The translations under genes and the position numbers were made by a program. From NCBI RefSeq assembly GCF_053078305.1, contig NZ_CP166879.1: a stretch of DNA of 64,000 nucleotides. One strand, written 5' to 3'. Below, one piece after another: positions 7,144 through 55,964 of this stretch. The notes beneath the pieces are model-generated. The model searched no databases, was not told the DNA's origin, and worked only from the letters and a program-made list of their open reading frames with translations. Numbering within the stretch: the first letter of the stretch is position 1; each line of letters begins with the position of its first letter.

Positions 7144-8721
7144 ATGACGGAAAACATTCATAAGCATCGCATCCTCATTCTGGACTTCGGTTCTCAGTAC
7201 ACTCAACTGGTTGCGCGCCGCGTGCGTGAGCTGGGTGTTTACTGCGAACTGTGGGCGTGGGATGTGACAGAAGCACAAATTCGTGACTTCAATCCAAGCG
7301 GCATTATTCTTTCCGGCGGCCCGGAAAGTACTACTGAAGAAAACAGTCCGCGTGCGCCGCAGTATGTCTTTGAAGCAGGCGTACCGGTATTCGGCGTTTG
7401 CTATGGCATGCAGACCATGGCAATGCAGTTGGGCGGTCACGTTGAAGCCTCTAACGAACGTGAATTTGGCTACGCGCAGGTTGAAGTCGTAAACGACAGC
7501 GCACTGGTTCGCGGTATCGAAGATGCGCTGACCGCAGACGGTAAACCGCTGCTCGATGTCTGGATGAGCCACGGCGATAAAGTTACCGCTATCCCGTCCG
7601 ACTTCGTCACCGTAGCCAGCACCGAAAGCTGCCCGTTTGCCATTATGGCTAACGAAGAAAAACGCTTCTATGGCGTACAGTTCCACCCGGAAGTGACTCA
7701 CACCCGCCAGGGTATGCGCATGCTGGAGCGTTTTGTGCGTGATATCTGCCAGTGTGAAGCCCTGTGGACGCCAGCGAAAATTATCGACGATGCTGTAGCT
7801 CGCATCCGCGAGCAGGTAGGCGACGATAAAGTCATCCTCGGCCTCTCTGGTGGTGTGGATTCCTCCGTAACCGCAATGCTGCTGCACCGCGCTATCGGTA
7901 AAAACCTGACTTGCGTATTCGTCGACAACGGCCTGCTGCGTCTCAACGAAGCAGAGCAGGTTCTGGATATGTTTGGCGATCACTTTGGTCTTAACATTGT
8001 TCACGTACCGGCAGAAGATCGCTTCCTGTCAGCGCTGGCTGGCGAAAACGATCCGGAAGCAAAACGTAAAATCATCGGTCGCGTTTTCGTTGAAGTATTC
8101 GATGAAGAAGCGCTGAAACTGGAAGACGTGAAGTGGCTGGCACAGGGCACCATCTACCCTGACGTTATCGAATCTGCGGCGTCTGCAACCGGTAAAGCAC
8201 ACGTCATCAAATCTCACCACAACGTGGGCGGCCTGCCGAAAGAGATGAAGATGGGCCTGGTTGAACCGCTGAAAGAGCTGTTCAAAGACGAAGTGCGTAA
8301 GATTGGTCTGGAGCTGGGTCTACCGTACGACATGCTGTACCGTCACCCGTTCCCGGGACCAGGCCTTGGCGTTCGTGTTCTGGGTGAAGTGAAGAAAGAG
8401 TACTGTGACCTGCTGCGCCGTGCTGACGCCATCTTCATTGAAGAACTGCGTAAAGCGGATCTGTACGACAAAGTCAGCCAGGCGTTCACCGTCTTCCTGC
8501 CAGTACGTTCCGTTGGCGTAATGGGCGATGGTCGTAAGTATGACTGGGTTGTCTCTCTGCGTGCTGTCGAAACCATCGACTTTATGACCGCACACTGGGC
8601 GCATCTGCCGTACGATTTCCTCGGTCGCGTTTCCAACCGCATTATCAATGAAGTGAACGGTATTTCCCGCGTGGTGTATGACATCAGCGGCAAGCCGCCA
8701 GCTACCATTGAGTGGGAGTGA
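7144..8721 (+). CDS. guaA: GMP synthase (glutamine-hydrolysing)
   Basis: 525 aa, class-I GATase N-terminus, [10 protein letters not shown]-loop. Confidence 0.96.
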
Positions 8722-8761
8722 GGCTATTATTTAAACTATTGTTTTATTTGATTTAGTGAGT

Positions 8762-8800
8762 GCCATTGATGATATTGACTGCATTATCAATGGCATTTTT
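8762..8800 (+). terminator. AT-rich hairpin plus T-run downstream of guaA
   Basis: gccattgat (8762..8770) pairs with atcaatggc (8786..8794), followed by attttt. Confidence 0.4.
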
Positions 8801-9105
8801 CATGGTATAAGGCCGACGCTGAATCGAAGATATAGCAAATACCATGTGACTGTATCAGCAAATGCCATGGTATCGACAACCGGGGGCATTGCAGCGCTGT
8901 GCTGATGCCATCGATGCCCGCTTTTAGTCAGAACACTCTCTCGACCCAAGCCTCCAGATCCTTAAATATGCGCCAGAGGAGCACCTCGTGATCGAAATTA
9001 TGAACAAGACAGCCGCCGCTCGGAATCGAAGTCTCCATATGGGTGAATAAGGTTTGCGGAAAACACGCTGAGAAAATAGAAAAGCGTCAATGAAGGGACA
9101 TAGCA

Positions 9106-10386
9106 ATGGCGATTAACGGAGTGGACGGTGTTAGCGCAGTCACCGTGGATGAACTACTCAAGCAAGGCCTTCGGATACCGAACTATCAACGCCCATACAG
9201 TTGGGAAGTATCGACCGCTCTACAACTGGTGGATGATCTCAGCGAAGCTCTTCGAGATACCGAAAGAAAAGATATTCCCTATGTTTTGGGTGCAATCATT
9301 CTTCACGATGATGGTGAGTATCTCAATGTAGTCGACGGACAGCAACGTCTGCTGACTTTGCGAATGATTCTTGCGGCCTTAGATCCGATAAATCACCAAA
9401 TTTCGGTGTCTGGTAACAGAGAAACCTCTGTCTCCCTGGTTTGGATAGAGCTTCAAAGGCGCCTGTCGCAGTTGGAAGATAAAAAAGAATTTTTGGATTT
9501 TATCTGTCACAAATGTCAGTTGGTGCGTATTGTGACGGACGATATTGATGAGGCATTCCGTGTCTTTGATTCCCAGAACTATCGCGGCAAACCGCTTGCC
9601 CCTCATGACTTGCTCAAAGCACACCACCTGCGCGAAATGCACGATGAGTCCGCTGCTATGAAAGTGGCTGTCGTTGAGGCTTGGGAAGCCGTAAATGATG
9701 AGGATCTGGACAGGCTTTTTTCTACTTTTTTATACCGGATATCCAAGTGGTCACGAGGAGAAAGCTCGCTCGAATTTGCTATTCGGGACATCGGTATGTT
9801 CAAGGGAATTTCATCACGATCCCACAGATCATTTTCGCCAAATCTGCGATATCACCTTGCAGCACAAGCCGCTATGCCACTTCTAAGTGCATGGGCGGTG
9901 TCCTCGACACATGATGCTCGAAATGCCGGGCGCAGCCGCTTTCAGCTTGATGCCCCGATAATCGCTGGGCGCTCATTTTTCGAGATGGTGGCATTCATGC
10001 TTGACGAATTGAAGATACTGGAAAAAGAGGTTATCGACAAAGGTTTCAAAAACTTTGGCCCATCTCAAAGTCGCTACCGCTACGTGTACGAATTGTTCAT
10101 TGCCGCTCTGCTTTGCTATACAAACAAGTTTGGCGATGAAGATGTGGATGAAGTGCGAAATAGGTTATTCGCATGGGCATATGCCTTGCGGGTCGAGTTA
10201 CTTCGTGTGCAATTTGTATCTGCTGACAACCGAGCTCGAGGTAAAAACGATGCAAATAAATCGCCTTTTGTTTTGCTACGCAACGCGATGACTGGAAGTG
10301 TTGTCCGCAAACTTCCAATAGCAAGTCAGCCATACAACGATAACCACGAAAAGGAACTCATTGCTTTTATCAAGGGGCTGCAATGA
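9106..10386 (+). CDS. DUF262 (ParB/Srx-like NTPase, GmrS-like) protein; accessory gene A
   Basis: 426 aa; IPNYQRPYSW motif and DGQQR (nt 9334..9348); later FRVFDSQNYRGKPL motif; no HNH/His-Me motif seen in the C-terminal ~270 aa; ATG 9106 with GGGA RBS; stop overlaps the next start (ATGA at 10383..10386). Confidence 0.8.
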   Translation: MAINGVDGVSAVTVDELLKQGLRIPNYQRPYSWEVSTALQLVDDLSEALRDTERKDIPYVLGAIILHDDGEYLNVVDGQQRLLTLRMILAALDPINHQISVSGNRETSVSLVWIELQRRLSQLEDKKEFLDFICHKCQLVRIVTDDIDEAFRVFDSQNYRGKPLAPHDLLKAHHLREMHDESAAMKVAVVEAWEAVNDEDLDRLFSTFLYRISKWSRGESSLEFAIRDIGMFKGISSRSHRSFSPNLRYHLAAQAAMPLLSAWAVSSTHDARNAGRSRFQLDAPIIAGRSFFEMVAFMLDELKILEKEVIDKGFKNFGPSQSRYRYVYELFIAALLCYTNKFGDEDVDEVRNRLFAWAYALRVELLRVQFVSADNRARGKNDANKSPFVLLRNAMTGSVVRKLPIASQPYNDNHEKELIAFIKGLQ

Positions 10387-12335
10387 GCAAGAAGGAGTTG
10401 AAACCCGAACTGCTAACAGTAGGCAAGCTATTCACGGACAATTATCTGATTCCTATTTATCAACGGAACTATGCTTGGCGGGCCGAACAGATTGAGCAAC
10501 TTATCAGCGATATTCAAGACTCGGTTGTTGGGGGCCAGGACGACTATTTTCTTGGAAACCTTGTTGTAATCAAGCGGGGTAGAGAGGACGAGTTCGAGGT
10601 CATAGATGGACAACAACGACTTACAACCCTCTATCTGCTTCTGACCTTCCTGGAGCAAGACGGTGAGGGTGGGAAGCCGTCGATTGGCCATGCAGGCCAC
10701 TTGCAATATGAGTCGCGTGCACGGGCAACGGAAGCCCTGCGGCGAGTAGCACAGGAGGCGGCTAAGGGGCACGTCCGACCGCAGGGCTCCACGAGTAATG
10801 CAGATGCTGGCATCCATGAAGGCTACAGCATCATCAATCAGTTCTTCAAACAAAATGAAACCCTTAATTGCTCACGCGAAAAATTCTCCGATTTCTTGCT
10901 AACGAAGGTTACTGTCGTCCGTGCCTCGCTGCCACCCAATACAGATCTCAATCGCTACTTCGAGATCATGAACACTCGTGGGCAGCAACTCAAGCAGGTT
11001 GATATTGTTAAGGCTCGCCTGATGAGCAAGCTGCCCAATCAATATGAACGCGAATGCTTCGCCTGGGTTTGGGATGCCTGTGCTGAGATGGATTCTTATG
11101 TCCAGATGTCTCTGACCCGTGGTGACACCAGTTTGCGAAACAAAGTATTTGGCGATGAATGGTCCTGGCTGGAGGTGACCAGCTTCGCGTCGTTAATGGA
11201 AAGTCGTCCGCAATCCGGCATCAATTCTTCAAGGCAATCCTCCGAAGGGGTATCGTTGTCCTTGGATGAGGCGTTGTCAAAATACGCTAAAGAGATCGAG
11301 TCAAATTCCACTGAAGACGAGGGCAACGAGCGGTTTCGTTCGACTATTGAGTTTCCGGCCTTTCTGCTACACGTTCTAAGAATTATGAAAGGCGATGAGG
11401 TCGAAGACGAAGGCCAGCTTGACGACAAACGCCTCATCAAGTCATTTGACGACGCTGTAAATAATGTACCCGATGCTAAAGCCGATTGGGTGCGTAACTT
11501 TACATTCATGCTCCTCAAGTGCCGCAACCTCTTCGATGGCTTCATTTTGAAGCGTCAATTCACGGCGAACATCGGTGACGATGGCGATTGGTCTCTCCAG
11601 CGATTGAAGAAAGGCGGCGCGGACAAGAAGCCAACCCCGACGTATATCCATGTTTTCTCGGCCAGCAATGGAAACTTAGAGGAGGACGGCGGTGCTGACC
11701 CACATACCCGAGATGTATTGCTGCTTCAGTCCATGCTTCGGATAACCTACACTTCTCCGCGAACGATGCACTGGATTACCAAAGTTCTTCGCTGGCTATC
11801 CGTCAAAGCCCCTCAAGACGCGAAACATGCGGATCTTGCCGATTTGTTGAAGGGGTATGCCCGCAGCAAGGTCAAAGAGACATTCCCCTTTGAGGAAGAT
11901 CAGCAACCACAAGGGTTTGGTATCAGCCGCATCGTCTTTTCGTATCTCGACTATCTTCTGTTGAGCGATTCCTCAAAACGAGATTTCAAATTTCAGTTCA
12001 GAACTTCCATTGAGCACTTTTATCCACAGCATCCGGACAAAGAACAGTCGGGCGCGGTTGTTTCAGGTTCTAGCCTTAACCTGCTTGGCAACCTTGCGCT
12101 CGTAAGCGTCAGCGCGAACTCAAAATTCAGCAATAGCCTTCCCAGAGCGAAGGCCGAAAACTTCAAGGATACGATTGAACTTCAAAGTCCCAAGCTCAAG
12201 AGAATGGCGGAAATCACTCGAAATACAAGCTGGGACGATCAGCAGATAACAGCTCATCATGAAGAGATGGTGACATTGCTTCGTGATGATGTAAGTCTGG
12301 TGGAGGCAAGCGGAAGATCCTACCCGGGGCGTTGA
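10383..12335 (+). CDS. DUF262-DUF1524 protein (GmrSD/SspE/BrxU-family type IV restriction endonuclease-like); accessory gene B
   Basis: 650 aa; N-terminal IPIYQRNYAW plus DGQQR (10605..10619) plus FEIMNTRGQQL; C-terminal His-Me finger motifs SIEHFYPQHP (12009..12038) and NLLGNLALVSVSANSKFSN (about 12072..12128). Confidence 0.85.
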   Translation: MSKKELKPELLTVGKLFTDNYLIPIYQRNYAWRAEQIEQLISDIQDSVVGGQDDYFLGNLVVIKRGREDEFEVIDGQQRLTTLYLLLTFLEQDGEGGKPSIGHAGHLQYESRARATEALRRVAQEAAKGHVRPQGSTSNADAGIHEGYSIINQFFKQNETLNCSREKFSDFLLTKVTVVRASLPPNTDLNRYFEIMNTRGQQLKQVDIVKARLMSKLPNQYERECFAWVWDACAEMDSYVQMSLTRGDTSLRNKVFGDEWSWLEVTSFASLMESRPQSGINSSRQSSEGVSLSLDEALSKYAKEIESNSTEDEGNERFRSTIEFPAFLLHVLRIMKGDEVEDEGQLDDKRLIKSFDDAVNNVPDAKADWVRNFTFMLLKCRNLFDGFILKRQFTANIGDDGDWSLQRLKKGGADKKPTPTYIHVFSASNGNLEEDGGADPHTRDVLLLQSMLRITYTSPRTMHWITKVLRWLSVKAPQDAKHADLADLLKGYARSKVKETFPFEEDQQPQGFGISRIVFSYLDYLLLSDSSKRDFKFQFRTSIEHFYPQHPDKEQSGAVVSGSSLNLLGNLALVSVSANSKFSNSLPRAKAENFKDTIELQSPKLKRMAEITRNTSWDDQQITAHHEEMVTLLRDDVSLVEASGRSYPGR

Positions 12336-12553
12336 CTTCTTTGAATAACCGCTTTTGGACGAATGTCCCTTGTGGAGTGCAAGTTGTCAGTTTAAAAGTG
12401 TTTTGCGTCGGGCGACACGATCAGTACAGCTCCCAGGTTTTTTTACCATGGTATTTTGTGTGGTATCGACATGCAAAGATAATGCTATTTTGTTGATTTT
12501 ATAGTGTTTTAAGGCGGCATTGATCATCGAGTGGGAATAAACCCTGTACATAT

Positions 12554-12594
12554 TGCTGAAGTTTTCTTTTCGGATAAAACTTCAGCAGATTTTC
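12554..12594 (+). terminator. perfect 12-bp-stem hairpin downstream of the accessory operon
   Basis: tgctgaagtttt (12554..12565) is the exact reverse complement of aaaacttcagca (12576..12587), 10-nt loop, then GATTTTC; a T8 run follows at 12622..12629. Confidence 0.45.
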
Positions 12595-12686
12595 ACAGCA
12601 AACCCCTCTTATCTCTGGAGGTTTTTTTTACGCAAATTAAAAACCCATAACTCTCACGAATCATGGGCTTTGTGGTAGAAAGACGA

Positions 12687-13226
12687 TTAATTAAACCAAC
12701 CGTCCGATTTATTCTCTTCTGCTTTACCCACGCTTTTCATCAAATCGCGACCGCCTTCTGTCACATTTCTGTTAGCGTCAGCTTCAGATTGCACGACATC
12801 AGTTTGCGCGGCTTTGTGCTTCAGCTCCTGGTCGATAAACTCGTTCTCTCGCTTAACGCGGGCTTCTTCTTTCGCCAGCGCCAGCTTTTGTTTCTGAATC
12901 TCTAAGCTGCGCAGCTCATCTTCATAACTTTGATCGCGTTTTTTATCCGCGGTGGCTTCGGCGTCCAGTTTATCCTGACGAGCTTTCTTATCCGCTGCTG
13001 CTGCCGCCGCTCTTTTGTTAGCGGCGGCCTGGGCATTTGCGCGACGTTGCTTCTCTTGCTGGATTTCCCTGTTGCGCTCCGCGACCCATTCGTCATGCTG
13101 CCTTTGCTCTTCATTTTTACCTTGCTGTTCCGCTTCTGCGACAGCAGAGAGTTGATCCTGCAATGATGAGGCGATAGCCGGATAGCTTAAGGAGACCAAG
13201 ATGGCGCAAAGAAAAACTTTCTTCAT
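12687..13226 (-). CDS. yfgI: YfgI, secreted coiled-coil protein
   Basis: 179 aa, signal peptide, K/E/Q-rich; recognised as YfgI. Confidence 0.9.
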   Translation of the reverse strand: MKKVFLCAILVSLSYPAIASSLQDQLSAVAEAEQQGKNEEQRQHDEWVAERNREIQQEKQRRANAQAAANKRAAAAAADKKARQDKLDAEATADKKRDQSYEDELRSLEIQKQKLALAKEEARVKRENEFIDQELKHKAAQTDVVQSEADANRNVTEGGRDLMKSVGKAEENKSDGWFN

Positions 13227-13241
13227 GACTCCTCCTGATTA

Positions 13242-13760
13242 TTAGCTCTTTTCAGGACATTTGGTATTTGGCTGAATACGCGTTTCGTTATACGTCGTGG
13301 TAATAACAACGGCTAAACCTGTCGTAAACTGGCACTCTTTACCCACCTGAGTAGAGGTATACACTTTGGTGCCTTCCTTATACGTTAAAGAAACACCTTC
13401 CACTAAGGTTTTATCATTCACCATAGAACCCGCTGCCGCGCCTACAGCTCCGCCGCCAACTGCACCTGCCGTCGTTCCGGAATTGCTGCCAGACCCGACG
13501 TTGTGGCCGATAACACCGCCAGCGACTGCGCCAATAAGCGCGCCGAAGGCTTGTGCGTTCCGTTTATTTTGGGAGTTGTCTACGGCAACTTTTGCGGGAA
13601 GAATGGAAATAATATTAACGGTTTTAGTTTCTTGTTTGGTATTCAGTTGATCGGTTTGATAAACATCGGCGGCATGATCGTCAGCATTTGACTGGCATCC
13701 TGCCAGAGTGAATGACGCTAACATTGCCACAGGCAGAAGACATTTTTTAAATTTCATCAC
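13242..13760 (-). CDS. yfgH: YfgH, glycine-zipper outer-membrane lipoprotein
   Basis: Lipobox LAGCQ, Gly-rich GALIGAVAGGVIGHNVGSG segment; start may be the ATG at 13757 rather than the GTG at 13760. Confidence 0.9.
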   Translation of the reverse strand: MMKFKKCLLPVAMLASFTLAGCQSNADDHAADVYQTDQLNTKQETKTVNIISILPAKVAVDNSQNKRNAQAFGALIGAVAGGVIGHNVGSGSNSGTTAGAVGGGAVGAAAGSMVNDKTLVEGVSLTYKEGTKVYTSTQVGKECQFTTGLAVVITTTYNETRIQPNTKCPEKS

Positions 13761-14059
13761 TATTCCTTGTTATACACATTACGAAAAATAAGACATTTAA
13801 GATCATCAAAAGAGGAAAGTAAATGTATTGCGTATAAAGGGATAGATTAAATTTATTAAAATTCACGTGGGGAATAATTTATGAAAACACATCATTACAA
13901 CATATATATTAATTTTGCAGCCAAACAGGATAAACATCAGTCAGGACAAAGACGTAAAATTTAAGATGAAAGAATATCTGCCGCTTTGATAATTCCAAAG
14001 AGCAAAAGCATCCGACAGCGAAGCGCCGTTATGTTCTGTGAAAGTGGAGAAGGTAACCG

Positions 14060-14251
14060 CTAACGTTGTACCGGTGATTCGACGGAGAGTGTGGATTGCT
14101 GAGCTTCTTTTTTGCTCTGATGGTGCTGCCAGGCACCGACGGACGAGTAGATAAAACGGCCAAAGAAGAAGATAAAGCTGATGAGCAGTACGATACGGGT
14201 CATGCGACTGTTAAATCGGTGTCGTTTTCGCATACTGGTTGCCTGACTCAC
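14060..14251 (-). CDS. yfgG: YfgG, small membrane protein
   Basis: 63 aa from GTG (57 aa from the internal ATG at 14233), one hydrophobic helix; recognised as YfgG. Confidence 0.7.
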   Translation of the reverse strand: MSQATSMRKRHRFNSRMTRIVLLISFIFFFGRFIYSSVGAWQHHQSKKEAQQSTLSVESPVQR

Positions 14252-14461
14252 AAAAGGTTCCTTGAAGTATGTCCCACGCTGTGGACGGTACTTACATTAA
14301 GGCACAACAGGACAAAATGGTCAATTCTTCGTTATGTAAAAAAGCGTCAGTGGATACATATTTTAATGTTATGGAAGTTAATTTAATTATTTACAATGAT
14401 GATGTAATAATGATGAATTAACATGATAAACGTAATAATTCATTAATCAGGGTTATTTTGT

Positions 14462-14475
14462 TTGATATATATCAA
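14462..14475 (+). promoter_or_regulatory. consensus FNR/CRP-family box upstream of pdeF
   Basis: TTGATATATATCAA is a perfect TTGAT-N4-ATCAA palindrome; TAGAAT -10-like hexamer at 14497..14502. Confidence 0.55.
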
Positions 14476-14602
14476 TTGGAACTTTCATATGACACTTAGA
14501 ATCAATGCTCTCTATAGTGATGAATAATCATCATTCGAAGTCAGGTGGGATGCCTGTCTGAATACACCTCCTTCAGGATGTGGGGGATTCTGCTGAGCAT
14601 CT

Positions 14603-16846
14603 ATGAAACTGAATGCAACTTATATAAAAATACGTGATAAATGGTGGGGGCTTCCGCTGTTCCTGCCTTCTTTAATCTTGCCCATTTTCGCCCACATTAA
14701 TACTTTCGCGCATATTTCTTCCGGTGAGGTTTTTCTCTTTTATCTGCCTTTGGCACTGATGATCAGCATGATGATGTTTTTCAGCTGGGCGGCATTGCCA
14801 GGGATCGCCTTAGGGATTTTTGTCCGCAAATATGCAGAGCTTGGTTTTTACGAAACGCTCTCATTAACGGCTAATTTTATTATCATTATCATTCTCTGTT
14901 GGGGCGGTTACAGGGTCTTTACTCCCCGCCGTAACAACGTTTCACATGGTGATACCCGTTTAATTTCCCAGCGTATATTCTGGCAGATTGTGTTTCCTGC
15001 AACGCTGTTTCTGATACTTTTCCAGTTTGCTGCGTTTGTAGGATTACTGGCGAGCAGAGAAAATCTGGTCGGCGTCATGCCTTTTAACCTCGGGACCTTA
15101 ATCAATTATCAGGCCTTACTGGTGGGTAATCTGATCGGTGTCCCGCTGTGCTACTTCATCATTCGGGTAGTGCGAAATCCATTTTATTTACGTAGCTATT
15201 ATTCGCAATTAAAACAGCAGGTTGATGTCAAAGTCACCAAAAAAGAGTTCGCACTCTGGCTACTGGCATTAGGTGCTTTACTGTTGCTGTTATGCATGCC
15301 GTTAAATGAAAAAAGCACAATTTTTAGCACCAATTATACCTTGTCATTATTGCTGCCCCTGATGATGTGGGGAGCGATGCGCTATGGTTATAAGCTGATT
15401 TCGCTGCTCTGGGCGGTCGTGTTGATGATCAGCATCCACAGCTATCAAAATTACATTCCCATTTATCCTGGCTATACCACGCAGCTGACCATAACCTCCT
15501 CCAGTTATCTGGTATTCTCTTTTATTGTCAATTATATGGCTGTACTGGCAACCCGTCAGAGAACGGTAGTCAGACGCATTCAGCGGCTTGCGTATGTGGA
15601 CCCGGTGGTTCATCTGCCAAATGTTCGCGCCCTGAATCGCGCGTTGCGTGATGCCCCCTGGTCTGCGCTTTGTTATTTACGCATCCCTGGCATGGAAATG
15701 CTGGTTAAGAACTATGGCATCATGCTGCGGATTCAATACAAGCAAAAACTTTCTCACTGGCTGTCACCCTTGCTGGAACCGGGTGAAGATGTTTATCAGC
15801 TTTCGGGTAACGATCTCGCGCTGCGACTGAATACAGAATCGCACCAGGAGCGCATTGCCGCACTGGATAGCCATCTCAAGCAATTTCGTTTCTTTTGGGA
15901 TGGCATGCCGATGCAACCGCAGATTGGCGTCAGTTACTGCTATGTGCGCTCGCCAGTGAATCATATCTACCTGCTGCTGGGAGAGCTAAATACGGTCGCC
16001 GAACTTTCCATCGTGACCAACGCCCCGGAAAATATGCAGCGTCGCGGGGCAATGTATTTGCAACGCGAATTGAAAGATAAAGTCGCGATGATGAATCGAC
16101 TACAGCAGGCGCTGGAACACAACCATTTTTTCCTGATGGCCCAGCCGATTACCGGTATGCGTGGTGATGTTTACCATGAAATTCTTCTGCGCATGAAAGG
16201 TGAGAATGATGAACTGATCGGCCCCGATAGCTTCTTGCCGGTCGCGCACGAATTTGGTTTATCGTCGAGTATCGACATGTGGGTCATTGAGCATACGCTG
16301 CAATTTATGGCTGAAAACAGAGCGAAGATGCCCGCTCACCGTTTTGCTATTAATCTGTCTCCAACCTCGGTATGTCAGGCTCGTTTTCCTGTTGAAGTCA
16401 GTCAGTTGCTGGATAAATATCAGATTGAAGCGTGGCAACTTATTTTTGAAGTCACCGAAAGTAATGCTCTGACCAATGTTAAGCAGGCGCAAATCACCTT
16501 GCAGCATCTTCAGGAATTAGGCTGCCAGATTGCGATTGATGATTTCGGCACCGGCTACGCCAGCTATGCGCGGCTTAAAAATGTGAATGCCGATCTGCTT
16601 AAAATTGACGGCAGTTTTATCCGCAATATTGTGTCAAATAGTCTGGATTATCAGATAGTGGCATCGATTTGCCACCTGGCGCGAATGAAGAAAATGCGGG
16701 TAGTGGCAGAGTACGTTGAAAACGAAGAGATCCGCGAGGCGGTGCTCTCTTTGGGGATCGATTATATGCAGGGTTATCTTATTGGTAAGCCGCAGCCGTT
16801 AATTGATACGTTGAATGAAATCGAACCCATTCGCGAAAGTGCCTGA
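14603..16846 (+). CDS. pdeF: c-di-GMP phosphodiesterase PdeF (MASE1 - degenerate GGDEF - EAL)
   Basis: 747 aa, multi-TM N-terminus, C-terminal EAL domain; recognised as YfgF/PdeF. Confidence 0.93.
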   Translation: MKLNATYIKIRDKWWGLPLFLPSLILPIFAHINTFAHISSGEVFLFYLPLALMISMMMFFSWAALPGIALGIFVRKYAELGFYETLSLTANFIIIIILCWGGYRVFTPRRNNVSHGDTRLISQRIFWQIVFPATLFLILFQFAAFVGLLASRENLVGVMPFNLGTLINYQALLVGNLIGVPLCYFIIRVVRNPFYLRSYYSQLKQQVDVKVTKKEFALWLLALGALLLLLCMPLNEKSTIFSTNYTLSLLLPLMMWGAMRYGYKLISLLWAVVLMISIHSYQNYIPIYPGYTTQLTITSSSYLVFSFIVNYMAVLATRQRTVVRRIQRLAYVDPVVHLPNVRALNRALRDAPWSALCYLRIPGMEMLVKNYGIMLRIQYKQKLSHWLSPLLEPGEDVYQLSGNDLALRLNTESHQERIAALDSHLKQFRFFWDGMPMQPQIGVSYCYVRSPVNHIYLLLGELNTVAELSIVTNAPENMQRRGAMYLQRELKDKVAMMNRLQQALEHNHFFLMAQPITGMRGDVYHEILLRMKGENDELIGPDSFLPVAHEFGLSSSIDMWVIEHTLQFMAENRAKMPAHRFAINLSPTSVCQARFPVEVSQLLDKYQIEAWQLIFEVTESNALTNVKQAQITLQHLQELGCQIAIDDFGTGYASYARLKNVNADLLKIDGSFIRNIVSNSLDYQIVASICHLARMKKMRVVAEYVENEEIREAVLSLGIDYMQGYLIGKPQPLIDTLNEIEPIRESA

Positions 16847-16851
16847 ATAAT

Positions 16852-16878
16852 GCGGGCCGACATTTCTCGTCGGCCCGC
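16852..16878. terminator. bidirectional hairpin between convergent pdeF and ppx
   Basis: gcgggccgac (16852..16861) / gtcggcccgc (16869..16878) perfect 10-bp stem, 7-nt loop. Confidence 0.55.
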
Positions 16879-16884
16879 AAAGCA

Positions 16885-20497
<3,613 letters not shown>

Positions 20498-51955: not shown

Positions 51956-52330
<375 letters not shown>

Positions 52331-52692
52331 TTATGAGAATAAATACTCATTTAAGAGTGAAAACATTTTGCCTGCAAATGATTATCAGGAAATATAACAT
52401 TATCGAAGTATTCAAATTAACAACTATTAAATAATATTAAACATTTTTAACGTAAACATTAAGAATATTCATCTTGTTATCTGTCTGTATTTTAACCAGA
52501 ATTAAATCAGTATTAGATGCCGTATGAATATCTCGAAATGTTGCTGTGTATCACATACAAATCATCACCGCAGGACCATAGTATTTACATAAGGTTTGTC
52601 CCCCGGAGGTAGTCTTCGCAGCAATCGAGTAAATTAGCTTCACCACGGTATATTGTTTCCGTAGAATACCCATAATTATAAGAGAGGTTGTT

Positions 52693-52752
52693 ATGATTGA
52701 ACGTGAACTGGGGAACTGGAAAGACTTTATCGAAGTTATGCTTCGTAAGTAA
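52693..52752 (+). CDS. ypfM: YpfM, 19-aa small protein
   Basis: ATG 52693 preceded by AGAGAGG RBS; encodes MIERELGNWKDFIEVMLRK; too short for the ORF track; recalled as the K-12 ypfM small protein at this position. Confidence 0.6.
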   Translation: MIERELGNWKDFIEVMLRK

Positions 52753-52812
52753 TTCCTGAGACAAAGTACAAACAGCAAGAACCCGCTGAGCAGGTTCTTA
52801 ATCGGAAAGTTG

Positions 52813-52846
52813 AAAAAGGCGACACATTAGCATGTCGCCTTTTTTA
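52813..52846. terminator. bidirectional terminator between ypfM and acrD
   Basis: aaaaggcgacac attagc atgtcgcctttttt. Confidence 0.6.
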
Positions 52847-52850
52847 TTGC

Positions 52851-55800
52851 TTATTCCGGGCGCGGCTTCAGCGGGAAGCGGCGGCGCACCAGCACAAAGA
52901 ACAGCGGCACGAAGTAAATAGCCAGAATAGTGGCTGAAATCATCCCGCCCATTACGCCAGTACCCACCGCATGCTGACCACCGGAACCGGCACCCGTGCT
53001 GGTTGCCATTGGCAATACGCCGAAGATAAATGCCAGCGAGGTCATTAGAATCGGGCGTAAACGCTGACGGCAGGCGTGGAGCGTCGCTTCAAACAGGTCG
53101 TGGCCTTTTTGGTTCATCTCGTTAGCAAACTCGACGATTAGGATGGCGTTTTTCGCCGATAAACCTATGACCGTTAACAGGCCCACCTGGAAGTAAACGT
53201 CGTTTTCCAGCCCGCGCATCCAGGTTGCTAGCAGCGCGCCGATAACCCCCAGCGGCACGACCAGCATTACCGAGAACGGTACCGACCAGCTTTCATACAA
53301 CGCCGCCAGACACAGGAATACCACCAGCAAGGAAATAGCGTACAGCGCCGGAGCCTGCGCGCCGGAAAGCCGCTCCTGATACGACATCGCCGTCCACTCC
53401 AGACCAAAGCCGTTTGGCAACTGCTTCACTAACGATTCCATAATATCCATCGCCGTACCGGTACTGACCCCCGGTGCGGCTTCCCCAACAATCTCAACCG
53501 CAGAATAACCGTTATAGCGTTCCAGACGCGGCGAGCCTGTCTCCCAGCGTGAGGTCGCGAAAGCAGAGAAGGGCACCATGCCGCCATCTTTATTTCGGAC
53601 ATACCAGAGATTAATGTCATCTGGCAGCATGCGATACGGCGCAGCTGCCTGCACATAGACTTTCTTCACGCGACCGCGATCCATAAAGTCATTCACATAG
53701 CTCGAACCCCAGGCGGTTTGCAGTGTGTCGTTAATATCGTCGATAGCAACGCCCAGCGCCTGAGCTTTACGCTGGTCGATATCAATCTGCAACTGCGGAC
53801 TGTCGTCGAGGCCGTTATGGCGCACACGGGTTAGCTCCGGGTTTTCCGCCGCCAGCGCCAGCAACTGGTTACGTGCTGCCATCAGCGCATCGTGACCTGC
53901 TCCAGCGTGGTCCTGCAACTCCATATCAAAACCCGCAGAACTACCAAGACCGCTAATTGCTGGCGGGCTGCTGGCGATAACGCGAGCTTCTTTAATCTTG
54001 TTAAACGCCTTCGTTGCACGCTCGATAATGGCAAATGAGGTGCCGGTCTTACTGTCGCGTTCGCTCCAGTCTTTCAGGCGGATAAACATTCGCGCCACGT
54101 TTTGCCCGTTACCCCCAGGGCCAGAGCCAACAGTGGCAAACACCGACATGATGTTGTCTTTTTCATGGGTGAAGTAATATTTCTCGATTTGCTCAACGAC
54201 TTTCAGGGTCTGTTGTTGGGTTGAACCGCTGGGCAATTGTACCGAGGTAGTAAACATGCCCCGGTCTTCCAGCGGTAAGAACGACGTCGGCAAACGCAGG
54301 AACAGGAACACCATGCCGCCAAGCAGCAGGACATAAATCACAATCCAGCGCAGGCTACGGTGGAGAATTTTCGCCACCCCTTTTTCGTAGCGTTCGGCGT
54401 TGCGGTTAAACATCTGGTTAAACCAGGCAAAAAAGCCTTTTTGCCCGTGATGCTCACCTTTTTTCAGTGGCTTAAGTAGCGTGGCACACAGAGCCGGAGT
54501 GAGGATCATCGCTACCAGTACTGACAGCACCATCGCCGCAACAATGGTAATAGAGAACTGGCGATAGATGGCACCGGTGGTGCCGCCGAAGAAGGCCATT
54601 GGTACAAATACCGCCGAAAGCACCATCGCAATCCCGACCAGTGCCCCCTGGATCTGCCCCATCGATTTACGTGTGGCTTCGCGAGGAGTGAGTCCTTCCT
54701 CACTCATAATACGTTCGACGTTTTCCACCACCACGATGGCGTCATCCACCAGCAGACCGATCGCCAGCACCATCGCGAACATGGTTAAGGTGTTGACGCT
54801 GTAACCGAAGGCGTAAAGTACGGAGAAGGTTCCCATCAACACCACCGGCACGGCGATAGTGGGTATCAGCGTGGCGCGGAAGTTTTGCAGGAACAGATAC
54901 ATAACGAGGAAAACCAGGGCGATAGCTTCCAGCAGCGTTTTCACCACGTCTTCAATGGAGGCTTTAACAAACGAGGTGGTTTCATACGCCACCTTGTATT
55001 CCAGTCCGTGCGGGAAGTACTGCGCCAGCTCGTCGAGACGATTGAGCACCAGCTCCGCTGTCGCCATTTCGTTTGCGCCGGAGGCCAGTTTTACCCCCAG
55101 CCCCGAGGCTGGCTTACCATTGAAGCGGCTAAGATAATCGTATTTCTCCGCCCCCATTTCGACGGTGGCGACATCGCCCAGCCTTACCTCTGAGCCGTCC
55201 TGATTCACCCGCAAGGTGATATCGCGGAACTGTTCTGGTGTTTGCAGCAGTGACTGGGCGTTAATGGTGGCGTTGAGCGCCTGCTTATCGACGGAAGGTG
55301 TACCCCCAAGTTGCCCAACCGCAATCTGCGCGTTCTGTGACTCAATGGCATCAGTGACATCTTTAGCCGTCATCTGGAAACTGTTGAGTTTCGCCGGGTC
55401 CAGCCAGATACGCATGGAATATTGCGAACCATAGGCATCGATATCCCCGACGCCATTCACGCGGCTTAACGGGTCCTGAATATTACTGGCAACATAATCA
55501 GCAATATCCTGTTTATCCATCGAACCATCGGTAGAGACGAAGGCAATGGTCAGAATGTTGGTATCGCCGGTTTTACGCACCGTCACGCCCTGATTTTGCA
55601 CCGCCTGCGGTAACTTTCGCATGGCTGATTGCAGCTGGTTTTGTACTTGCTGCACGGCTTCGTCCGGATCGGTGCCTGCTTTAAAACTTAAAGTGACAGA
55701 TGCCTGACCGGTGCCACTGCTCTGAGATGACATATACATGAGATTATCGAGGCCGGTCATATTTTGCTCGATAACCTGGGTCACGGTGTTTTCCAGCGTC

Positions 55801-55964
55801 TGGGCCGATGCGCCGGGATAGTTAGCGGTCACTCGCACATTCGGTGGCGCGAGATCGGGGTATTGTTCAACGGGCAATGAAAAAATCGCCAGGGTACCTG
55901 TCAGACACAACAGGATTGCCAGCACCCAGGCAAAAATGGGGCGATCAATAAAGAAATTCGCCAT
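52851..55964 (-). CDS. acrD: RND multidrug/aminoglycoside efflux pump AcrD
   Basis: 1037 aa, 12-TM RND transporter recognised as AcrD. Confidence 0.95.

Follow-up and report, generated by a model that had tools for sequence, protein, structure and literature searches.

The window, i.e., the whole stretch of 64,000 nucleotides that was analysed, carries successively yfgI, yfgH, and yfgG, all on the minus strand, then pdeF (also named yfgF) on the plus strand, and then ppx. A Ni/Co tolerance phenotype has been reported for yfgG (Mutalik 2019, PMC6338753). The block considered here, from 13761 to 14602, is made of yfgG and its two flanking spacers, the limits of which correspond exactly to gene boundaries. 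The features recognized along this segment are collected in Table 1.

Table 1. Genes, spacers, and regulatory features between yfgI and pdeF, given in window coordinates.
Feature	Coordinates	Strand	Basis or remark
yfgI	12687-13226	-	Annotation
yfgH	13242-13760	-	Annotation
Left AT-rich spacer, yfgG stop to yfgH start, fast-evolving	13761-14059		GC 0.328
Putative yfgH promoter: TTTACT (13823-13818), 17 nt, TTAAAT (13800-13795)	13795-13823	-	Read from sequence
Two weak, putative terminator-like hairpins past the yfgG stop codon	13977-14028	-	Scan and fold
yfgG, 63 aa, DUF2633, Ni/Co stress response protein	14060-14251	-	RefSeq; Pfam PF11119, E = 3.6e-28
Right AT-rich spacer, divergent yfgG/pdeF control region	14252-14602		GC 0.342
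50-aa ORF, "hypothetical protein" WP_000017552.1	14269-14421	+	PGAP; overlaps the yfgG promoter
yfgG sigma-70 promoter: -35 TTGACC (14324-14319), 17 nt, extended -10 TGcCTTAAT (14304-14296)	14296-14324	-	
Conserved elements upstream of the yfgG promoter: ATGTAAAAA..CGTCAG (14334-14350) and ACAT-N6-ATGTTAT (14356-14372)	14334-14372		Conservation profile
FNR box TTGATATATATCAA, perfect consensus half-sites TTGAT-N4-ATCAA	14462-14475	+	Read from sequence
Alternative predicted FNR-independent promoter ATGACA-18-TATAGT	14489-14518	+	Consensus scan, 10/12 matches
pdeF -10 hexamer TAGAAT	14497-14502	+	Named in PMC3718329
Leader hairpin A: CAGG-UGGGAUG-CCUG, loop GGA 14548-14550	14542-14556	+	Conserved; RNAalifold
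Leader hairpin B: CCUCC-loop-GGGGG, loop GGA 14576-14578	14567-14586	+	Comparison of 20 leaders
Invariant translation-initiation block GAGCAUCU and AUG of pdeF	14595-14605	+	Conservation
pdeF (yfgF), MASE1-GGDEF-EAL c-di-GMP phosphodiesterase	14603-16846	+	Annotation

The initial annotation described both spacers as markedly AT-rich, and the measured composition agrees with this description. Indeed, the GC content is 0.328 for the left spacer and 0.342 for the right one versus 0.519 for the window. The complete 842-bp block, including yfgG (0.495), has a GC content of 0.372 and ranks in the lowest 0.2-1% among sliding windows. Because coding DNA constitutes an unfair comparison, the intergenic regions of the window that measure 50 bp or more, 23 in number, were used as a baseline besides the whole-window value. 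Their mean GC content is 0.436, and the two spacers flanking yfgG are, together with 52313-52850 (0.340), the lowest of them. As both lie about 10 GC points under the intergenic mean, their AT-richness is real and exceeds the usual intergenic drop. The low GC content also extends into the 5' part of pdeF, where it amounts to 0.41-0.45 as far as ~15400. The A/T tracts mentioned in the initial annotation are confirmed only in a modified form. Homopolymer tracts of at least 4 nt are as numerous as in mononucleotide shuffles, both in the left spacer (7 versus 5.8 ± 2.0, P = 0.35) and in the right one (5 versus 5.4 ± 2.1, P = 0.65). What is distinctive is a TpA frequency of about twice the window average, with mixed A/T runs that are rich in TpA and reach 18 nt.

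The window is E. coli chromosomal DNA, and its region 13200-14700 is matched in 5424 of the 5426 complete E. coli genomes. Aligned with K-12 MG1655, the right spacer differs by a single nucleotide, and thus, the data published for K-12 apply directly, at least to this spacer. Of 5422 E. coli genomes, 4635 carry it at an identity of 99% or more. The comparison was extended to loci with a PdeF orthologue from Escherichia species, Salmonella, several Citrobacter, Enterobacter, Phytobacter, Kluyvera, and other Enterobacteriaceae. In all 23 loci that extend far enough upstream, yfgG and pdeF are divergent neighbours. The right spacer, compared in 21 distinct loci, has a length of 341-366 bp (mostly 350 ± 3) and a GC content of 0.34-0.41, versus a whole-locus GC content of 0.44-0.57 in the first 14 loci. 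Its invariant blocks are the -35 and extended -10 of yfgG, the two elements upstream of them, the FNR half-sites, the -10 of pdeF, a block in the leader, and the sequence preceding the AUG.

On the plus strand, these blocks outline the promoter of pdeF. In the account given by PMC3718329, which cites Lacey 2010, the promoter of yfgF belongs to the class II FNR promoters, the box being at -41.5 and the -10 element being TAGAAT, and it is conserved in Salmonella. According to the literature, expression of yfgF is anaerobic and FNR-activated. With the box centred at -41.5 and this -10 element, the transcription start of pdeF would be located near 14510. The FNR half-sites are retained in 25 of the 25 loci examined, which include at least six named genera, and a TA.AAT hexamer is found 21 nt past the box in the 15 loci tested. 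An FNR ChIP peak at 2627146 and a predicted FNR site are listed for yfgF/yfgG by Myers 2013 (Tables S5 and S6, PMC3688515), and this predicted site is exactly the FNR box of the window. The pdeF promoter thus combines the box and the -41.5/-10 geometry of class II FNR promoters with FNR binding and FNR dependence known from the literature. In wild type grown in glucose minimal medium, no FNR-dependent change of yfgF expression was recorded (Myers 2013, Table S9, PMC3688515). An alternative promoter, ATGACA-18-TATAGT, is predicted by the consensus scan and was also predicted for yfgF by Shimada 2014. Its TATAGT hexamer is poorly kept beyond Escherichia.

On the minus strand, TTGACC-17-CTTAAT was predicted as the promoter of yfgG by Shimada 2014, and the transcription start is predicted at ~14289. 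The -35 and the extended -10, as well as the pdeF -10, are invariant across the 21 aligned full spacers. A strong anaerobic sigma-70 ChIP-seq peak (height 11933) was found at U00096.2 position 2627279 (Myers 2013, PMC3688515), which corresponds to ~14284 in the window and falls on the yfgG promoter. This promoter therefore unites hexamers at a 17-nt spacing with an RNA polymerase occupancy taken from the literature, as expected for sigma-70. Expression of yfgG is 2.2-fold up anaerobically in wild type. The upstream element ACAT-N6-ATGTTAT resembles an ArcA box, a reading that was set aside, yfgF/yfgG being missing from the ArcA ChIP supplements of PMC3798270. The proposal that the spacers hold the promoters of yfgG and pdeF is consequently right for the right spacer, which holds both, and wrong for the left one. 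Indeed, the latter sits 3' of yfgG and upstream of yfgH, and therefore cannot hold either of them.

Besides the promoters, the right spacer includes the leader of pdeF, in which two short hairpins are conserved. Hairpin A, C(A/G)GG-loop-CCUG, is near-invariant across 20 leaders, with the loop GGA in 20 of 20. It corresponds to the consensus helix returned by RNAalifold, and its changes are exclusively one-sided with the pairing kept (A-U to G-U, U-G to U-A). Hairpin B is found with a (A)CCC/GGG(U) core and a loop GGA in 19 of the 20 leaders, the remaining loop bases being variable. It displays lineage-specific extensions (AUACCC/GGGUAU, AAACCC/GGGUUU, CCCAC/GUGGG, and CCCUC/GAGGG), and 86% of its cells are paired in register versus 44-57% when the partner is slid, a covariation that is modest. 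The two loop GGA motifs of the 5' UTR are spaced by 28 nt. This conserved pair of GGA-bearing leader hairpins is a previously unreported observation.

A leader with at least two GGA, at least one of them in a hairpin loop, and a distance of ~10-60 nt between them has the layout of CsrA sites, and the pdeF leader displays this layout. Classic CsrA-controlled leaders are those of glgC, pgaA, and the diguanylate cyclase genes ycdT/dgcT and ydeH/dgcZ. As these targets include c-di-GMP turnover genes, pdeF belongs to a fitting gene class. Within the leader, no GGA overlaps the weak Shine-Dalgarno or the start codon of pdeF. The GGA nearest to the AUG (in GGGGGA, 14584-14586) is located 17-19 nt upstream, and the block GAGCAUCUAUG is devoid of GGA. 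The folding energy of the leader is unremarkable (z = -0.36) and its stems are short. In the minimum free energy folds of most species, the pre-AUG GCAUCU pairs with the GGAUGC of hairpin A. The RBS-sequestering helix that would result finds no support, as its natural variants are non-compensatory (GCACCU in L085; GGAUAC in L086-L088, plus GCAUUU in L087/L088). Neither pdeF nor yfgF appears in the CsrA CLIP and transcriptomic supplements of Potts 2017 and of the 2019 Salmonella study (PMC6347204). Under the aerobic growth conditions of those studies, expression of the gene is poor, and its absence might simply be that of an anaerobic, H-NS-masked gene unexpressed in those data sets. It is thus only tentatively suggested, from the conservation of the hairpins, that the pdeF leader (~14510-14602) carries a conserved control element acting post-transcriptionally, through CsrA or otherwise. 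If Csr control takes place, it may consist of repression, or of activation by opening an RBS-sequestering helix.

The left spacer has a different history. Compared with K-12 MG1655, it shows eight substitutions and an 11-bp deletion (between 13916 and 13917). Its allele is found at an identity of at least 99% in just 9 of 5418 E. coli genomes, 5363 of them having a version that is 90-95% identical. In strain TA8571, it is interrupted by a pair of IS1 elements, and IS1 transposases are annotated over the same stretch in strain XD35. The sole part conserved across Escherichia, including E. fergusonii, is the ~90 bp adjoining yfgH. This part contains the putative yfgH promoter, which is weak, fell under the threshold of the promoter scan, and has no sigma-70 ChIP peak listed under anaerobic conditions in K-12; its predicted transcription start is ~13788. 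At the other end, past the yfgG stop codon, the terminator scan gives a first hairpin (14028-14013), and folding gives a second one (~14006-13977) followed by a U-rich stretch; the folding energy of this 3' region is not unusual (z = -0.66).

Beyond Escherichia, a yfgH gene on the upstream side of pdeF was found in one locus only (L013), ~1.5 kb past yfgG. In other genera, the interval between guaA and yfgG is occupied by an MscS channel, an HTH_46 protein, phage lysis genes, AbiEi, a Vgr/pyocin gene, or nothing. In the window, it includes two GmrSD/DUF262-type genes that K-12 does not have. This varied cargo, along with the IS1 insertions and the polymorphism, designates the left spacer as the edge of a variable-cargo hotspot. 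Its AT-richness most likely reflects weakly constrained DNA tolerated under H-NS rather than dense regulatory sites.

The suggestion that the block is H-NS-silenced regulatory DNA was checked by a look-up of published K-12 data. Positions in K-12 were mapped to the window by anchoring on the FNR box, with an offset of 1978 to NC_000913.3. The H-NS ChIP-chip regions of Myers et al. 2013 (Table S3, PMC3688515), 2626274-2628408 under anaerobic conditions and 2624400-2628963 under aerobic conditions, correspond to ~13155-15289 and ~12600-17163, respectively. They span both spacers, the left one included, as well as the genes yfgH and yfgG and the GC-poor 5' part of pdeF, and their extent agrees with the GC trough in the window profile. 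In addition, the yfgF/yfgG spacer binds H-NS and the RpoD holoenzyme in genomic SELEX (Shimada 2014).

Functional data point in the same direction. In a strain deleted for hns and stpA, the FNR ChIP signal at yfgF/yfgG rises significantly from 0.35 to 1.68 log2(IP/input), an increase among the largest of the corresponding table, and O2-dependent expression of yfgF is seen only in this strain (Myers 2013, PMC3688515). The H-NS reading is thus correct and already documented for K-12, with a silencing that is partial. Indeed, with sigma-70 peaking strongly at the yfgG promoter, the region is not uniformly silenced. Moreover, the nucleoid-protein overlap at the FNR site itself is given as "None" (Myers 2013, Table S6, PMC3688515), and therefore, H-NS may cover the box only in part or indirectly. 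These ChIP and expression data were all obtained with K-12 MG1655 in glucose minimal medium, and the left spacer of the window is a rare allele. The high-affinity H-NS motif (TCGATAAATT-like) is matched twice when up to 2 mismatches are allowed, each time in the left spacer (3.1 versus 1.2 per kb), a number too small to be interpreted.

These elements can be assembled into one explanation, which very probably holds as a whole: the block is a documented H-NS-coated segment of the E. coli core chromosome uniting two kinds of AT-rich DNA under H-NS, i.e., a constrained promoter spacer and a fluid hotspot edge. The right spacer would act as a constrained divergent control region. On its plus strand, the consensus FNR box at -41.5 and TAGAAT would form a class II FNR-activated pdeF promoter, and on its minus strand, TTGACC-17-TGcCTTAAT would drive yfgG. 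H-NS and StpA would bind the AT-rich stretch that runs from yfgH/yfgI to within the 5' part of pdeF, reduce the occupancy by FNR, and mask the anaerobic induction of pdeF, the yfgG promoter remaining strongly occupied by sigma-70. The left spacer would correspond to the 3' flank of yfgG and a probable yfgH promoter at the hotspot edge, evolving fast and accepting IS1. In this scheme, the published ChIP and expression data, the composition, the conservation, and the positions of the motifs are established, and we infer the exact transcription starts, the yfgH promoter, and the yfgG terminator.

AT-richness could also arise from an ordinary relaxation of non-coding DNA, or be a relic of horizontal acquisition, with no specific regulatory role. 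The generally lower GC content of E. coli intergenic DNA, illustrated here by its mean of 0.436, would fit such an origin, as would the A/T tracts that do not exceed the expectation from composition and the distal half of the left spacer, which is poorly conserved even within Escherichia, with indels and IS1. However, a deficit of ~10 GC points relative to the intergenic mean has still to be accounted for in both spacers. Furthermore, the right one is highly conserved in E. coli, keeps its length, AT-richness, and invariant motifs across the genera examined, and is the place where published ChIP locates FNR, sigma-70, and H-NS. Relaxation, which is unlikely, is thus already contradicted for the right spacer.

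It is quite unlikely, too, that another nucleoid-associated or AT-binding factor (Fis, IHF, PgrR, or FlhDC) organises the block instead of H-NS. The signals that evoke such a factor are the presence of yfgF/yfgG among the PgrR genomic SELEX targets, a weak FlhDC SELEX peak between yfgG and yfgH, and an IHF ChIP region within pdeF (~15051-15330). Nevertheless, these signals are in vitro or weak, as AT-rich DNA typically gives, and the IHF region lies in neither spacer, whereas the deletion of hns and stpA measurably alters FNR binding and yfgF expression.

The spacers had also been proposed to contain unannotated small RNAs, a proposal that found no support. An Rfam scan of 13000-15200 with E-values up to 10 returned only chance matches to eukaryotic or plastid families, a sequence scan of the spacers yielded no orphan promoter-terminator pair, and the folding energies of the pdeF leader and of the yfgG 3' region are ordinary. 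The 50-aa ORF is called by PGAP in the E. coli RefSeq records inspected and is intact in several Escherichia species; K-12 annotation is devoid of it, and no Pfam match was obtained. In comparisons within Escherichia, its synonymous/non-synonymous codon differences are 1/5, 1/10, 4/12, and 1/7, its start codon is gone in L007, and its stop codon is gone in L017. In other genera, its frame contains many stops, and the weak tblastn similarity found outside the genus overlaps the conserved DNA of the yfgG promoter. The mostly non-synonymous differences, the lost start and stop, the stops elsewhere, and the lack of a Pfam match rule out this ORF as a gene, and its annotation over the yfgG promoter is probably an artefact. 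That the spacers conceal a gene, either a small RNA or this protein, is therefore very unlikely, even if the length of the right spacer is oddly constant.

The two-part explanation, with H-NS cover over a constrained control region and over a hotspot edge, is thus retained. The main finding is already published for K-12: the block is explained by the H-NS cover, the FNR promoter of pdeF, and the promoter of yfgG, and there is no need to pursue it further as an anomaly. What the comparison of loci brings out is that the two spacers are alike in composition and opposite in evolution, one being a constrained control region and the other the fluid edge of a hotspot. If the leader hairpins do bind CsrA, a new link would be established between the Csr system and the anaerobic turnover of c-di-GMP, on top of the control by FNR and H-NS.

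In comparison with CsrA-controlled leaders, the pdeF leader has the two GGA, each in a short hairpin loop and 28 nt apart, but it differs from them by having no GGA on the Shine-Dalgarno, by its short stems, and by an ordinary folding energy. As for class II FNR promoters, the pdeF promoter shares with them TTGAT-N4-ATCAA, a -10 at 21 nt past the box, and an FNR ChIP peak. It differs in that no FNR-dependent expression change is seen when wild type grows in glucose minimal medium and in that an overlapping FNR-independent promoter is predicted.

The locus also figures among the divergent "type-A spacer" constitutive promoters of Shimada 2014, where it is listed as yfgF<HNS>yfgG, and both promoters predicted there are present in the window. 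The yfgF promoter of that list is different from the FNR-dependent one of Lacey 2010, and only the yfgG and FNR promoters are conserved across genera.

A close parallel is also provided by the extended H-NS regions that mask FNR sites in K-12, such as ydhY (Myers 2013). As in these regions, the DNA is AT-rich over more than 1 kb and enriched in H-NS, the locus is included in their tables, and the FNR peak goes up and O2-dependent expression appears only in the strain deleted for hns and stpA. A difference is that FNR is still detectably bound at pdeF in wild type. Finally, whereas H-NS-bound DNA has often been acquired recently, the yfgG-pdeF pair is ancestral, as is the right spacer, and both keep their synteny (ppk-ppx-pdeF-yfgG) throughout the Enterobacteriaceae.

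In a comparison of nine loci around PdeF orthologues (L082-L090), the interval on the downstream side of yfgG, between that gene and guaA (counterpart of window 8722-14059), is a hotspot whose cargo varies across Enterobacteriaceae. In Escherichia the cargo is yfgHI; outside this genus, an MscS channel, an HTH_46 protein, phage holin/lysozyme genes, AbiEi, a Vgr/pyocin-DNase gene or nothing at all is found. In the window, two neighbouring genes absent from K-12 stand between guaA (7144-8721) and yfgI. Their best PADLOC matches are HEC-06, Orf5 and SspE-like, and the pair looks like a type IV restriction or defence islet. In ECNB21-M121, a near-identical strain, the equivalent position is occupied by genes for an ATP-dependent nuclease and a UvrD-like helicase. 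An AT-rich junction on the yfgI side of the pair is probably an island boundary. The yfgG-yfgH spacer (window ~13761-14059) also receives insertions: that of E. coli TA8571 holds two IS1 copies around a gene fragment, and a search-table match indicates a TA8571-like IS1 pattern in XD35.

Coordinates of features in and around the AT-rich segments of the window
Feature	Position	Strand	Remarks
GmrSD-type gene pair	9106-12335	+	first, 426 aa: GmrSD_N + DUF7834; second, 650 aa: GmrSD_N + GmrSD_C
AT-rich junction	12437-12740		GC minimum 0.363; between GmrSD-like gene end and yfgI 3' end
WP_000017552.1, 'hypothetical protein', 50 aa	14269-14421	+	PGAP annotation, present in the inspected RefSeq records of E. 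coli
Conserved elements	14334-14372		30-80 bp upstream of yfgG -35; ATGTAAAAA..CGTCAG and palindromic ACAT-N6-ATGT(TAT)
pdeF leader hairpins (two, conserved)	14542-14556; 14567-14586		within 14510-14605
ArsC-family gene	51956-52312	-	flanks AT-rich spot 52132-52850
AcrB/AcrD-family transporter gene	52851-55964	-	flanks AT-rich spot 52132-52850

A second strongly AT-rich spot in the window (52132-52850), the spacer separating the AcrB/AcrD-family transporter gene from the ArsC-family gene, reaches a GC minimum of 0.267. Synteny between the window and K-12 suggests that it is a candidate for the acrD / yffB region, in which a ypfM<HNS>yffB spacer, a candidate counterpart, was marked as H-NS-binding (Shimada 2014).

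Upstream of yfgG, the spacer shared with pdeF is near-constant in length (341-366 bp, mostly 350 +/- 3, for window 14252-14602 and 20 other loci), despite much of its sequence being unalignable across the genera examined. The yfgG promoter within it is overlain by the open reading frame of WP_000017552.1, for which codon-level comparison revealed no protein-level constraint; this entry is probably a recurrent annotation artefact. Upstream of the promoter, the conserved elements include a palindrome whose Kluyvera version is perfect, AACATTAATTAATGTT. The ArcA ChIP data contain no entry for this locus.

At the pdeF end of the spacer, both leader hairpins present a GGA in the loop, with a separation of 28 nt, and are followed on the 3' side by an invariant GAGCAUCU-AUG block. 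No description of this two-hairpin GGA layout was found in the searchable literature. The arrangement of two loop GGAs in the pdeF leader resembles that of a CsrA site.
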